Sequence record: NC_018855.1
DNA from: Escherichia phage HX01
Reading direction: 5' to 3' (one strand)
Length of the DNA: 64,000 nt
Shown here piece after piece: positions 36,230-40,342 of the stretch. Position 1 is the stretch's first letter. Each line of letters starts with the position of its first letter. The translations under genes were made by a program, and so were the position numbers. Below the pieces are notes generated by a model. The model saw only the letters and a list, made by a program, of their open reading frames with translations, had not been told where the DNA came from and did not search any database.

Positions 36230-36655
36230 ATGGCTTTTAAAGGTTTTGAAGTTGGTAAGAAATATCGTATTATCAAAGGACAGGAAGATAATTTCTTGAG
36301 AATTCTTAATACGACTGGTAAACGTCTTAATACTAATCTGCATACTACTTTGTTGTCCAAAGATTTTATTGTAGAAGAGATGATTGGTTACGGCGTTTCG
36401 GTTATTGCCGTAGAAGCCGTAGGCGATTATGGCCGAACTATTCATAGTATGCAAGGTGATATTCTGCTTTATGGTGCAGAATTTAAATTCTTTGAAGAAG
36501 TTCCGGAACCAGATACATCTGTCGATTTCAAAAAAGGCTCTGTAGAATTTGTTGATGGTTCGGTGATCGTATCAGGTGATGTGGTCATTACAGTTAAAAG
36601 TGAACAAGGGCGTTTGGCTGCAATTGATGCACTTCAGAAAATTAAATTTAAATAA
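36230..36655 (+). CDS. hypothetical protein (141 aa)
   Basis: ATG ORF followed by a terminator. Confidence 0.5.
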   Translation: MAFKGFEVGKKYRIIKGQEDNFLRILNTTGKRLNTNLHTTLLSKDFIVEEMIGYGVSVIAVEAVGDYGRTIHSMQGDILLYGAEFKFFEEVPEPDTSVDFKKGSVEFVDGSVIVSGDVVITVKSEQGRLAAIDALQKIKFK

Positions 36656-36672
36656 GGGCTTCGGCCCTTTTT
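36656..36672 (+). terminator. rho-independent terminator
   Basis: GGGC-ttcg-GCCC hairpin followed by TTTTT, directly after the stop. Confidence 0.6.
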
Positions 36673-36702
36673 GCTTTAGATTTCGGATGATAGAATACCT
36701 TT

Positions 36703-37386
36703 ATGAAATACATAACATACTTAACAATATACACAGGCGATAAGTTGCCACCGTTTTATATAGGGTCTACTTATCTTGATAAACATACAAACAATTACTA
36801 TCATGGTACGGTAAAGTCGAAAAAATATAAACAAATTTATGATAAAGAGATAAAAGATAATCCTCATTTATTTGATTCATGTATTATTGGCGAATTTGAT
36901 ACACGGGAAGAAGCGACGTTTTGTGAGTTGTATTACCAGAAATTGCATAATGTGGTTAAATCTGAAAAATTTTTCAACATGTCTTATGCCACAGTTGATG
37001 GGTGCTTTGGTATGGATGTTTCAAAAGAGTTAAATCCATTTTATGGACATAATCACTCTGAAGAAACTATTGAACTACAATCCGTTATCAAGAAAGGCGA
37101 TCTTAATCCGATGTATGGAATTAAGCGCCCGGAACATTCTAAAGCAATGAGTGGCAAAAACAATCCATTTTATAATAAGAAACATACAAAGGAAGCGCTT
37201 ATAAAGTGTGGGCTTAAAAATCGTAAAAGTCCTGTATGGGAATATGAATCTGCTTTATATAAATTATGGTTAGAATTGGATAAACCAAAGGTTGGGAAAT
37301 TTGCTAAAGAAAGCATTAAACGTGGATTTCCGGAAGGTTCATACAAAAATATAGTCATGCAATTTGAGAGAAAATCTAATGATTGA
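36703..37386 (+). mobile_element. GIY-YIG homing endonuclease (Seg-like)
   Basis: 227 aa; N-terminal YITYLTIYTGDKLPPFYIGSTY (GIY-YIG motif) and C-terminal NPFYG / NPMYG / NNPFYNKKHT repeats (NUMOD3-like); stop overlaps the start of gene 39. Confidence 0.65.
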
Positions 37387-39199
37387 TAATAAAATTGAAA
37401 TGCTATCCGATAAAGAGCATTGTTTGAAGCGTCCTGGCATGTATATTGGAAGTGTTGCCAATGAAGAACAAGAACGTTTCCTATTCGGTGAATTTAAAAA
37501 GGTTAAATATGTTGCAGGTGTTCTCAAATTAATTGATGAAATTATTGACAACTCGGTAGACGAAGCTATTCGAACCAATTTCAAATACGCTAATAAAATT
37601 TCCGTTAGTATTGATTTAAATTCTAATAAAGTGACTGTTGAAGATAATGGTCGAGGTATTCCTCAAGAAACAGTTATTACTCCTGAAGGAGAAGAAATTC
37701 CAGGACCAGTTGCGGCGTGGACACGTACAAAAGCCGGTGGCAACTTTGGTGACGACAAAGAACGTGTTACGGGTGGACAAAACGGTGTCGGTTCTTCATT
37801 AACAAATATTTTTTCTGTCTCTTTTGTTGGCACTACTTCAGATTGTAAAAACGAATTGACAGTTAATTGTTCTAATAATGCTGATAATATTTCTTGGAAA
37901 TCTAAGCCGTCTAAAAACAACGGGACTAAGGTCGAGTTTATTCCTGATTTCTCTCATTTTGAAATGAATCAATTTGAAAAAATATACCAAGATATTACTA
38001 TAGACCGGCTCCAAACATTGGCAGTCGTTTATCCTGGCATTGAATTTAAATTTAATGGCAAAAAGATTCAAGGTAACTTTAAGAAGTTTGCTAAACAATT
38101 TGATGAAGAGGCCATCATTCAAGAACAAGACGGATGCTCTATTGCCATTGGTCGGTCACCAGATGGCTTCCGACATTTAACTTATGTTAATAACATCCAT
38201 ACCAAAAACGGCGGTCATCACATTGAATGTGTGATGGACGACATTTGCGAAGAATTAATTCCGGCTATTAAACGCAAATATAAAATCGACGTGACTAAAG
38301 CGCGCATCAAGGAATGTCTCACTCTCTTAATGTTCGTTCGTGGAATGAAGAACCTTCGTTTTGATTCCCAAACCAAAGAGCGTTTAACAAGTCCTTATGG
38401 CGAAATTCGGACGCATATTAAATTAGATACCAAAAAATTGGCAAAAAATATTTTGAATTCTGAAGCAGTTTTGATGCCTATAATTGAAGCAGCATTAGCT
38501 CGTAAATTGGCAGCAGAAAAGGCCGCAGAAACTAAAGCAGCTAAAAAGGCAACTAAAGCTAAGGTTCATAAGCATATTAAAGCTAACCAATGTGGTAAAG
38601 ATGCAGATACGACATTGTTTTTAACAGAAGGTGATTCGGCAATTGGTTATCTCATTGATGTTCGTGACCGTGAACTACACGGCGGATTCCCATTACGTGG
38701 TAAGGTGATGAATAGCTGGGGTATGTCATATGCTGATATGATGAAGAACAAAGAGCTCTTCGATATCTGTGCTATCACAGGTCTTATTCTTGGTGAAAAG
38801 GCAGAGAATACGAACTATCGTAATATTGCAATTATGACCGATGCCGATCATGATGGTCTTGGAAGTATTTATCCGGCTTTGCTTGCTTTCTTTAGTAATT
38901 GGCCTGAATTGTTTGAACAAGGACGTATTCGCTTTGTTAAAACGCCTGTAATTATTGCACAAATTGGCAAAACTCAAAAATGGTTTTATACTGTAGCTGA
39001 GTATGAAGAAGCTAAAGATACACTGCCTAAGCATAGTATTCGATACATCAAGGGATTGGGCTCCCTTGAAAAGTCAGAATATCGTGAAATGATTCAGAAC
39101 CCTGTGTACGACGTAGTTAAACTTCCTGAAAATTGGAAAGAACTCTTTGAAATGTTGTTGGGTGATGATTCAGAACTTCGTAAAGAATGGATGTCCTAA
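37379..39199 (+). CDS. 39: DNA topoisomerase II large subunit, fused gene 39 + gene 60 form (GyrB-like ATPase + TOPRIM)
   Basis: Track TTG start trimmed to ATG 37379, giving 606 aa. N-terminal ATPase region (LKRPGMYIGS, DNSVDEA, GGxNGVG) and C-terminal TOPRIM region in one continuous ORF. Confidence 0.85.
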   Translation: MIDNKIEMLSDKEHCLKRPGMYIGSVANEEQERFLFGEFKKVKYVAGVLKLIDEIIDNSVDEAIRTNFKYANKISVSIDLNSNKVTVEDNGRGIPQETVITPEGEEIPGPVAAWTRTKAGGNFGDDKERVTGGQNGVGSSLTNIFSVSFVGTTSDCKNELTVNCSNNADNISWKSKPSKNNGTKVEFIPDFSHFEMNQFEKIYQDITIDRLQTLAVVYPGIEFKFNGKKIQGNFKKFAKQFDEEAIIQEQDGCSIAIGRSPDGFRHLTYVNNIHTKNGGHHIECVMDDICEELIPAIKRKYKIDVTKARIKECLTLLMFVRGMKNLRFDSQTKERLTSPYGEIRTHIKLDTKKLAKNILNSEAVLMPIIEAALARKLAAEKAAETKAAKKATKAKVHKHIKANQCGKDADTTLFLTEGDSAIGYLIDVRDRELHGGFPLRGKVMNSWGMSYADMMKNKELFDICAITGLILGEKAENTNYRNIAIMTDADHDGLGSIYPALLAFFSNWPELFEQGRIRFVKTPVIIAQIGKTQKWFYTVAEYEEAKDTLPKHSIRYIKGLGSLEKSEYREMIQNPVYDVVKLPENWKELFEMLLGDDSELRKEWMS

Positions 39200-39226
39200 G
39201 CTCCTTCTGGAGCTTCATTTTAATTT
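39199..39226 (+). terminator. hairpin after gene 39 (weak terminator or attenuator)
   Basis: AGCTCC-ttct-GGAGCT hairpin followed by a T/A-rich tract. Confidence 0.35.
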
Positions 39227-39241
39227 TAATAAGGCTTAATT

Positions 39242-40342
39242 ATGAAAGTTATGTTTATCCCATCTCGTGCAGTCCCATTTAATCCTGACCGTGTACAAGG
39301 TGGTCTTGAAGCAGTACATTTAAATGTGTTGAAATATCTTGTGTCCATCGGTGCTGATATTGATTATATCGGCTTTGATAATGACACGTTTGGTGACTGG
39401 AAAGTTACACACCATCCTGTTGGTCATCTGACTAAATTTAGTCTAGGTATGAGTTATACTATGGCTCGTAAGATTGTTGAACTAGCCGGCATCCATGAAT
39501 ACGATTTTGTTGTTACTATGGAACCGACTAAACTAACCGTTCAGGCAATTAAAGACGCAGGTCTCTCTAAAGTTCATAAGAATTTTATGGCAACACCATT
39601 TGAACCGGTATCTCGTGGCATTGTTCAAATTTGGGACCAGACTATTCAAATTCATAAGAATGGTGGTAAGAGTTATGCTCCTACTAAAGCCTTCCGTGAA
39701 TTTGAACGCAAATATTGTTATATGACTTCAGGTCTGACTGACAAAATTGATTATGATTATTGGCGAGCAAATCCGTTGTTTGAAGCCGAAGATTATCCGG
39801 TTATTTGTTTGAATGAGAAACCTGAAGTTCTTCCGGCGACTGATCTGATTATTAGTGCACAACGTTATGACACTAAAATGCGTCGTACTGATGTTGCTCT
39901 TGAAGCGATTAAAGCACTAGGCGAAAATGGTGTAGGATACTGTCCAAGCAAATGGGCACCACCAGCTAAATATCCTGTTATTATTGATGCTCCACACAGT
40001 GAAATCATGGAACGTCTTAAAACAGCTAAAGCGCTTATTAATACGTGTCCTGACACAGGTACGGTAGAGAATAGTTCTATTGAAGCCATCTCTAAAGGTG
40101 TCCCTGTAATCCAGTTAGTTTTTAAGGATTATCCTCATGCGACATTCGAATACGACCCAGATACTGTGCGTGTAGAAATTGATTCCTCTACTCCTAAGAA
40201 AGAAGTAGTTGCGCTTTACACAAAAGCTGTATTAGAATTCACTGACACATACGAAGCTCGAGTTAAACGTGCTGAAGCAGTATGGAAGAAGTATAACCGA
40301 GATGCAGTTGTTGCGATGTGGGATAAAATCTTCACAGCGTAA
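39242..40342 (+). CDS. putative GT-B-fold glycosyltransferase, candidate DNA (hmC) glycosyltransferase
   Basis: 366 aa; C-terminal region GTVENSSIEAISKGVPVIQL resembles the E-x7-E donor-binding motif of GT4/GT-B enzymes. Inserted between gene 39 and rIIA.1/rIIA, where T4 has no glycosyltransferase. Confidence 0.5.
   Translation: MKVMFIPSRAVPFNPDRVQGGLEAVHLNVLKYLVSIGADIDYIGFDNDTFGDWKVTHHPVGHLTKFSLGMSYTMARKIVELAGIHEYDFVVTMEPTKLTVQAIKDAGLSKVHKNFMATPFEPVSRGIVQIWDQTIQIHKNGGKSYAPTKAFREFERKYCYMTSGLTDKIDYDYWRANPLFEAEDYPVICLNEKPEVLPATDLIISAQRYDTKMRRTDVALEAIKALGENGVGYCPSKWAPPAKYPVIIDAPHSEIMERLKTAKALINTCPDTGTVENSSIEAISKGVPVIQLVFKDYPHATFEYDPDTVRVEIDSSTPKKEVVALYTKAVLEFTDTYEARVKRAEAVWKKYNRDAVVAMWDKIFTA

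Follow-up and report, generated by a model that had tools for sequence, protein, structure and literature searches.

A probable Seg-family homing endonuclease gene and an associated foreign tract in topoisomerase gene 39 of Escherichia phage HX01

Introduction

What is a small endonuclease-like reading frame doing across the start codon of an essential topoisomerase gene, where did it come from, and has it anything to do with the division of that gene in phage T4? These questions are raised by a 64,000-nucleotide (nt) stretch of Escherichia phage HX01 (record NC_018855.1), called the window hereafter, which belongs to Mosigvirus (RB69/JS09-like T-even phages). An earlier reading made from the letters alone (the sequence-only reading hereafter) had described at this place an endonuclease open reading frame (ORF) with a GIY-YIG motif and NUMOD-like repeats, ending 8 nt within the ORF of the topoisomerase large subunit, and had proposed that the pair forms a homing arrangement tied to the architecture of genes 39 and 60. 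Our analyses suggest that positions 36703-37386 quite probably hold a Seg-family homing endonuclease gene, referred to as seg, which arrived with a foreign tract of gene 39, and they separate this gene from the 39/60 split of T4.

The features at the centre of the locus are the following.

36703..37386, + strand: seg ORF, 227 amino acids (aa) plus stop, ATG start and TGA stop; read here as a free-standing Seg-family GIY-YIG homing endonuclease gene
37379..39199, + strand: gene 39, 606 aa; unsplit large subunit of topoisomerase II, equivalent of T4 gp39 plus gp60
37379..37386, + strand: 8-nt overlap ATGATTGA, containing the gene 39 start codon and the seg stop codon

The segment 36000-39500 is collinear with, and 97-98% identical to, the genomes of Escherichia phages vB_EcoM_G2285, JM10 and the AV109/114/115/116/118 group. 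The mechanical call of the gene 39 ORF begins at TTG 37364, but it is the ATG at 37379 that yields the 606-aa protein, that has GAGAG 8 nt upstream and that agrees with the annotated gene 39 starts of G2285, AV115 and Bp7; with this start the overlap is therefore exactly 8 nt, which confirms what had been read from the letters.

Identity of the endonuclease

Three parts can be told apart in the seg protein.

36703..37002, + strand: GIY-YIG catalytic domain, N-terminal, about aa 1-100, with TIY (Y10), YIG (Y19-G21), K27, E75 and N92
37024..37218, + strand: three NUMOD3 repeats (NPFYG.., NPMYG.., NPFYN..), about aa 108-172, Pfam E-value 8.7e-12
37231..37371, + strand: three-helix C-terminal domain, aa 177-223, a confident bundle in the predicted structure

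We collected 172 homologues of seg and aligned 65 of them for the profile. A single-sequence search of the PDB with the seg protein gave no match, and the only match of the family profile was the NUMOD3 part of the I-TevI DNA-binding domain (1I3J, E-value 0.0019); since these searches yielded nothing for the catalytic part, its fold was tested by structure prediction. In the AlphaFold model (mean predicted local distance difference test score, pLDDT, 88.5) residues 1-100 are arranged as beta-beta-alpha-alpha-beta-alpha, the best PDB matches are all GIY-YIG nucleases, and the N-terminal domain as modelled has the three-stranded sheet with flanking helices of the GIY-YIG catalytic fold. Comparison of the family profile with T4 SegG by hhalign gave a probability of 96.2% (E-value 2.1e-9, 98 columns), the alignment spanning the PP(F/Y)YIGS motif and the catalytic Glu and Asn. 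Across the 65 homologues, Y10, Y19, I20 and E75 are invariant and G21 and N92 are kept in 64, while position 27 is basic in 55 (Lys in 42, Arg in 13, the window protein having Lys); the Pfam GIY-YIG model (PF01541) is matched by 24 of them (best E-value 1.5e-4) and SegE_GIY-YIG by two. The NCBIfam model of group I intron endonucleases (TIGR01453) scores the seg protein at 23 bits against a cutoff of 56, and PHROGs assign it to "homing endonuclease" families, one of which is labelled HNH. No HNH match was found by Pfam in the seg protein or in the 65 homologues, and no HNH structure occurs among the top fold matches; the "HNH endonuclease" label carried by seg orthologues in RefSeq is contradicted by the fold and by the lack of an HNH motif.

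The predicted fold, the SegG profile match and the conserved catalytic residues bear out the GIY-YIG motif despite a Pfam miss discussed below, so that the GIY-YIG fold on which the sequence-only reading depended is in place, and the repeats that it had called NUMOD-like are resolved by Pfam into three NUMOD3 repeats. By analogy with I-TevI, the NUMOD3 region is regarded as a linker and minor-groove DNA-binding region, and from the structural model we infer that the three-helix C-terminal part is a helix-turn-helix DNA-binding domain setting target specificity. The predicted build, in which a catalytic domain is joined through a NUMOD3 linker to a helical domain for DNA binding, is that of I-TevI and of the Seg proteins.

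Paralogues of seg occur at other genomic sites. These matches (H52-H75 of our list), found in Tequatrovirus and other genera away from gene 39, are about 65% identical over aa 2-123 and have another C-terminal half; they thus have the N-terminal domain in common with seg and not the C-terminal domain (aa 177-223), and many are annotated "HNH endonuclease". A common catalytic domain with differing C-terminal halves fits a swap of DNA-binding modules that would retarget the nuclease.

Distribution of seg

The gene is found in 7-9 of about 160 Mosigvirus records and is absent from about 95% of them. In at least 149 records the site is empty, and the empty site and the adjoining 1.1 kilobases (kb) of gene 39 are 95-100% identical among these genomes. 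The empty site is well illustrated by PhAPEC2, in which the order is an ORF005c-like gene, a terminator, TTTGCTTTA, 12 nt, TAGAAT, a 5' leader with GAGGAG, and gene 39. The sequence-only reading would have been in difficulty with the same gene at the same site in all relatives; most relatives do without seg.

Orthologues of 65-78% identity over their full length hold the same place in six genera, overlapping the gene 39 start, and are met in metagenomic contigs as well. Outside Mosigvirus they were found in Dhakavirus (Bp7, with 76% aa identity, and IME281), Jiaodavirus (Mexia and others), Tegunavirus (TG1), Karamvirus (KMB20) and Bragavirus (PM2). The 8-nt overlap recurs in Bp7, TG1, IME281 and the metagenomic loci L024-L027, and measures 14 nt in Mexia and KMB20. 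Such genes have been deposited under differing names: "GIY-YIG homing endonuclease" in Klebsiella phages Mexia and Merci and in Yersinia phage TG1, and "HNH endonuclease" in Bp7 and IME281. A scan of IMG/VR with the seg protein returned only distant NUMOD3 matches, and in the literature that we searched no paper was found that deals with a seg gene in this position before gene 39 or with seg transcripts lacking a leader.

A foreign tract in gene 39

Compared with its Mosigvirus relatives, gene 39 of the window falls into two parts.

37379..38486, + strand: nt 1-1108 of gene 39, apparently imported ("class B"), with 65-70% identity to the Mosigvirus consensus allele/PhAPEC2
38487..39199, + strand: native Mosigvirus part of gene 39 (nt 1109-1821), 97-100% identical to PhAPEC2 per 60-nt block

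On the left, comparison with the empty site of PhAPEC2 places the junction of the insertion at most 3 nt from the seg ATG; on the right, the junction is identical in all seg-carrying Mosigviruses, which therefore go back to a single acquisition. Judging from these junctions, seg and the 1.1 kb of gene 39 would have come into the lineage as one foreign block of about 1.78 kb, and the tract of nt 1-1108 looks like a co-conversion tract from an unsampled donor. Its nearest sequences outside the seg-carrying Mosigviruses are those of Dhakavirus Bp7-like phages, Bp7 being the best at 78.7%.

The same footprint is met elsewhere. Within Dhakavirus, Bp7 (with seg) and QL01 (without) diverge in gene 39 up to about nt 1140 and show 95-100% identity from there on, and within Jiaodavirus, Mexia (with seg) and BovinicusUrsus (without) diverge over the first ~660 nt. 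In each of the three genera the divergent tract begins at seg and extends only into gene 39. Free-standing endonucleases of the T4 SegF/SegG type cleave hundreds to thousands of base pairs (bp) from their own gene and co-convert the flanks (PMC2988022). The shortest tract, of 660 nt, likely bounds the region of cleavage, a bound in keeping with the distance from their own gene, hundreds of bp or more, at which such enzymes cut (PMC2988022).

At its 5' end, gene 39 exists in two deep classes. Class A (MIKNEIK..KRSGMYIGSS) is found in PhAPEC2, QL01, BovinicusUrsus and T4, all devoid of seg; class B (MI[D/Q/E]NKI..RPGMYIGSV) is found in all seg carriers, in S16 and FB, which lack seg, and in VR26. 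A strict association of gene 39 positions with presence or absence of seg gave one diagnostic position only, because S16 has a class B allele without seg, and the comparison was recast as class A versus class B. Over 1200 aligned nt the classes are separated by 14 nucleotide positions, all within the first 620 nt and seven of them in the first 80 nt, in a comparison of four class A with ten class B sequences that is confounded by phylogeny, which counts against reading the target region from it. A target in the first 80 nt of class A gene 39 can be put forward as a tentative, rather doubtful proposal.

The slot upstream of gene 39 is occupied by other genes in some relatives. VR26 (Gaprivervirus) has there, immediately before gene 39, a 252-aa ORF annotated "endonuclease VII" (L015 236-994), and this suggests that the slot is a hot spot for different endonuclease families. 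In Klebsiella phage BovinicusUrsus the place of the Mexia-type seg is held by a 122-aa ORF of unknown function, gp271 (L008 1223-1591), which Jiaodaviruses without seg carry.

At the other end of the gene, AV115 (L002 5700-6497) and AV118 (L011 4699-5049) carry a second endonuclease gene, of HNH plus NUMOD3 type, directly after the gene 39 stop, so that two endonuclease genes bracket gene 39 in these phages. The second gene is truncated in AV118, and the insertion is absent from the window. Next to it, gene 39 of AV115 and AV118 is again divergent, in a second tract that starts at about nt 1689 and reaches the stop. We considered whether the AV115 gene might be a paralogue of seg and rejected this, the NUMOD3 repeats being all that the two have in common.

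The unsplit topoisomerase gene

The 606-aa protein shows how far the T4 gene pair bears on this locus. In BLASTP searches with T4 proteins (from NC_000866), residues 1-475 align with T4 gp39 residues 1-473 at 77% identity and residues 474-606 with T4 gp60 residues 27-159 at 87%; the two parts are contiguous, with no gap. The reading frame runs unbroken across the T4 insertion point, and neither a mobA insert nor the 50-nt bypass was found in the alignment of the window gene to gp39/gp60. A GHKL ATPase, a GyrB transducer and a Toprim domain are recognized in the product (Pfam HATPase_c, DNA_gyraseB, Toprim and TOPRIM_C; NCBIfam GyrB/ParE-type models).

A single 606-aa frame spanning T4 genes 39 and 60, as the sequence-only reading had it, is thus borne out by the alignment. 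In T2, T6, RB69-like and most T4-like phages the gene is ordinarily unsplit, T4 being the exception in which an HNH element, mobA plus the 50-nt bypass cassette, was inserted at about residue 466-473 (bioRxiv 10.1101/2022.08.31.505936; PMC11461880). It follows that "fused" 39/60 is a misnomer for what is simply the normal unsplit gene, and that the contrast with T4 is uninformative about seg. The mobA/gene 60 bypass cassette is likewise a homing endonuclease element aimed at the topoisomerase large-subunit gene, but one whose HNH enzyme lies within the Toprim coding region, where it splits the gene and adds the bypass (Bonocora et al. 2011; bioRxiv 10.1101/2022.08.31.505936). The proposal that the endonuclease was linked to the 39/60 architecture has accordingly been given up: the T4 split stems from mobA, a different element at a different site about 1.4 kb downstream, outside the seg co-conversion tract. 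What stands of the homing idea is the Seg-type GIY-YIG gene beside an essential gene, its patchy presence and the 1.1-kb tract.

Split forms occur outside T4. In Proteus phage PM2 (L014 2868-5072) and Salmonella phage S16 (L016 1001-3132), gene 39 measures only about 1545-1554 nt and a "homing endonuclease" gene comes after it, which amounts to a T4-like, MobA-type split; PM2 has the upstream seg as well as the split.

Expression of seg and gene 39

The signals around the two genes are the following.

36654..36669, + strand: intrinsic terminator hairpin AAGGGCTTCGGCCCTT plus T-run, after the upstream ORF005c-like gene (terminator scan)
36670..36696, + strand: T4-type middle-promoter-like element, with MotA box TTTGCTTTA at 36670-36678, a 12-nt spacer and -10 hexamer TAGAAT at 36691-36696
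37366..37370, + strand: GAGAG, Shine-Dalgarno-like sequence for gene 39, within the seg codons for the conserved C-terminal F-E-R
39198..39215, + strand: terminator hairpin overlapping the gene 39 stop codon (terminator scan), annotated in G2285 and PhAPEC2

The first hairpin is native Mosigvirus sequence, present also in genomes with an empty site, identical in PhAPEC2, G2285 and AV115, and annotated as a terminator in G2285 and PhAPEC2. The element that follows it is one which we take to be a middle promoter from the MotA-box consensus (MotA box, 12 nt, TAnnnT) and from its conservation with the empty site; a scan for sigma-70 promoters showed no excess in the region over shuffled sequence. 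In genomes without seg this element fronts gene 39, and PhAPEC2 is identical to the window up to 3 nt before the seg ATG. Free-standing endonuclease genes of T4 are often promoterless cassettes (PMC2988022), and seg would by inference be another, using the middle promoter of gene 39.

The -10 hexamer ends 6 nt before the seg ATG, so that the seg mRNA is probably leaderless; an in-frame TAG lies 12 nt upstream, and inspection of the sequence between TAGAAT and the ATG showed no Shine-Dalgarno sequence. A transcript of this kind would probably be weakly translated, keeping expression low. The same geometry, a -10-like hexamer with an ATG 6-7 nt further on and no Shine-Dalgarno sequence, is found in Bp7, Mexia, TG1, KMB20, L024 and L025, where the upstream sequences are not alignable; in all, it holds for seven of nine lineages, IME281 and PM2 having a normal Shine-Dalgarno sequence. 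The ribosome-binding site of gene 39 lies in the last seg codons, so that seg and the start of gene 39 are physically interlocked, and a purine-rich motif equivalent to GAGAG is conserved in the other genera that carry seg.

A homing model for the locus

Taken together, these observations lead us to propose the following course of events. A seg gene would have entered downstream of the middle promoter of the essential gene 39 and ahead of its start codon. During co-infection with a relative devoid of seg, Seg would bind DNA through its NUMOD3 repeats and its C-terminal helical domain and cut the class A allele within the first ~660 nt of gene 39, the first ~80 nt being the best guess. The phage recombination machinery would then mend the break by copying the genome that carries seg, and the repair would transfer seg plus flanking gene 39 sequence without the target. 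The window may be the product of such an event, in which seg and 1108 nt of foreign gene 39 stand with native sequence on both sides, gene 39 being presumably translated from the ribosome-binding site embedded in the last seg codons.

Weighing the evidence

Several observations weigh against this model. The Pfam GIY-YIG model found no match in the window protein at E<=0.1, NUMOD3 being all that was recovered, and the canonical catalytic Arg is replaced by Lys27. In AV118, seg (L011 2201-2883) carries a 1-nt deletion in an A-run at gene nt 113-118 that shifts the frame, and seg is therefore dispensable. No donor of the tract was found in any collection searched, where the best match is 79%, and the transfer is therefore reconstructed rather than observed; the closest metagenomic Seg orthologues (P0002 and P0003, 75-78% aa identity) come with gene 39 tracts that are no closer. 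Escherichia phage vB_EcoM_FB (Dhakavirus; L009 1544-1625) has a Bp7-type gene 39 allele, 98% identical over the first ~1100 nt, without seg; its upstream region is empty and of QL01 type, with the junction exactly at the gene 39 ATGATT, a state that might have arisen by loss of seg or by conversion of the target alone, with no transfer of the endonuclease gene, or that might be ancestral. S16 likewise carries a class B allele without seg, and the two cases show that allele and endonuclease gene are separable. Lastly, the literature that we searched contained no biochemical or genetic data on the seg protein or any of its orthologues.

Should seg then be seen as a past homing invader which has lost its cleavage activity and is heading for loss? 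The Lys in place of the canonical Arg, the missing Shine-Dalgarno sequence, the AV118 frameshift and the low frequency of seg in Mosigvirus all speak for such a relic, which we nevertheless hold to be unlikely. The window and six of the seven Mosigvirus records with seg (97-100% nucleotide identity, the protein of AV115 and AV114 being 99.6% identical) have an intact seg frame, as do all six other genera or lineages examined. The ratio of nonsynonymous to synonymous substitution rates between seg orthologues is 0.10-0.35, which therefore indicates purifying selection on seg. Among the homologues the two core Tyr, the Glu and the Asn show no variation or almost none, and most have Lys or Arg at position 27; the AV118 deletion, which could mark a decaying copy, could equally be a sequencing error in a homopolymer. 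On balance we lean towards an enzyme that is still active.

Ordinary mosaicism, in which general homologous or illegitimate recombination would have brought in seg and the foreign 5' part of gene 39 and their adjacency would be a coincidence, has in its favour that T4-like genomes are mosaic, that the right junction falls in a stretch whose DNA is conserved between genera, where any homologous exchange would be favoured, and that FB and S16 hold class B alleles without seg. Against it, the pairing of seg with a tract recurs in three genera with differing flanks and tract lengths; the region is 98-100% uniform in the at least 149 Mosigvirus records without seg and so is not generally variable; and the HNH gene after gene 39 in AV115 and AV118 is likewise flanked by a divergent tract of its own. 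Given the pattern in three genera and this second tract, endonuclease-independent mosaicism appears unlikely, and we give it little weight. That Seg acts mainly as a DNA-binding regulator of gene 39, or as a weapon excluding competing phages, rather than as a selfish element strikes us as very improbable: I-TevI is both a nuclease and a repressor of its own promoter (PMC10055350), Seg has the I-TevI modular build, and the -10 box, seg ATG and gene 39 ribosome-binding site are closely packed, but there is no evidence for an operator-like copy of any target close to the promoter, gene 39 is expressed without seg in about 95% of Mosigviruses, and marker exclusion is an expected by-product of homing rather than an alternative to it (PMC2988022).

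Comparison with known systems

According to the profile comparisons and the structural model, the nearest counterpart of the window Seg is T4 SegG by sequence and I-TevI by fold. SegG is a free-standing GIY-YIG endonuclease encoded between genes 32 and 59 of T4 (Liu et al. 2003, cited in PMC2988022), and its N-terminal catalytic domain is homologous to that of the window protein. Both genes are free-standing, share the orientation of the essential replication gene that directly follows them, are co-transcribed with this neighbour (presumably so for seg) and are linked to co-conversion of hundreds of bp of it (for SegG: PMC2988022). They differ in genomic site, the neighbour being gene 32 for SegG and gene 39 for seg, and in the C-terminal part, the three NUMOD3 repeats and three-helix domain of the window Seg being unlike SegG, with no similarity outside the catalytic core; the activity of SegG has been shown experimentally, whereas the window Seg is known here from sequence and predicted structure. 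I-TevI, the GIY-YIG endonuclease of T4 td, is encoded within an intron, and seg is not; we detected no zinc finger in the window protein, Lys stands in place of Arg27, and hhalign similarity to I-TevI is limited to the NUMOD3 segment. The annotated orthologues of Mexia, Merci, TG1, Bp7 and IME281 have the same position and the same overlap with gene 39, in other genera.

Downstream of the locus

Between gene 39 and rIIA.1, the window encodes a 366-aa ORF (39242-40342) that is RB69 ORF003c-like and that has no counterpart at that position in T4. Searches of Pfam and NCBIfam gave no match for it, and it is placed in phrog_8302, of unknown function.

Implications

The established picture of free-standing homing endonucleases in T4-like phages is unchanged by these results. 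The family is already known, and orthologues of seg have already been deposited. What is new here is the 1.1-kb divergent tract of gene 39 in the phages that carry seg, an unusually clear footprint across genera, and the layout of expression may be distinctive. The widespread "HNH endonuclease" mis-annotation is corrected. In six genera the gene has the same defined neighbour, gene 39, and its product is an uncharacterised Seg-type endonuclease within reach of experiment; three independent tracts attributed to co-conversion bracket the expected cut site.

It is tempting to go one step further and to imagine a broad-range Seg lineage that specifically attacks class A, one of two ancient classes of allele, puts class B in its place and thereby repeatedly swaps the ATPase/transducer module across genera, all under leaderless expression from a middle promoter; we see this joint scheme as speculative and would not wager on it. 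Class A would in this scheme take in T4 and the T2-like, RB69-like, JS98-like and JD18-like phages.

As for the biology of these phages, the tracts suggest that a stretch of more than 1 kb of an essential replication gene can pass from one genus to another by homing, creating chimeric topoisomerase subunits that must work with gp52. The conserved spacing of -10 box and ATG without a Shine-Dalgarno sequence suggests a leaderless expression that can be tested, and, if this holds true, a leaderless transcript from a middle promoter would be an undescribed way to throttle a phage homing endonuclease.

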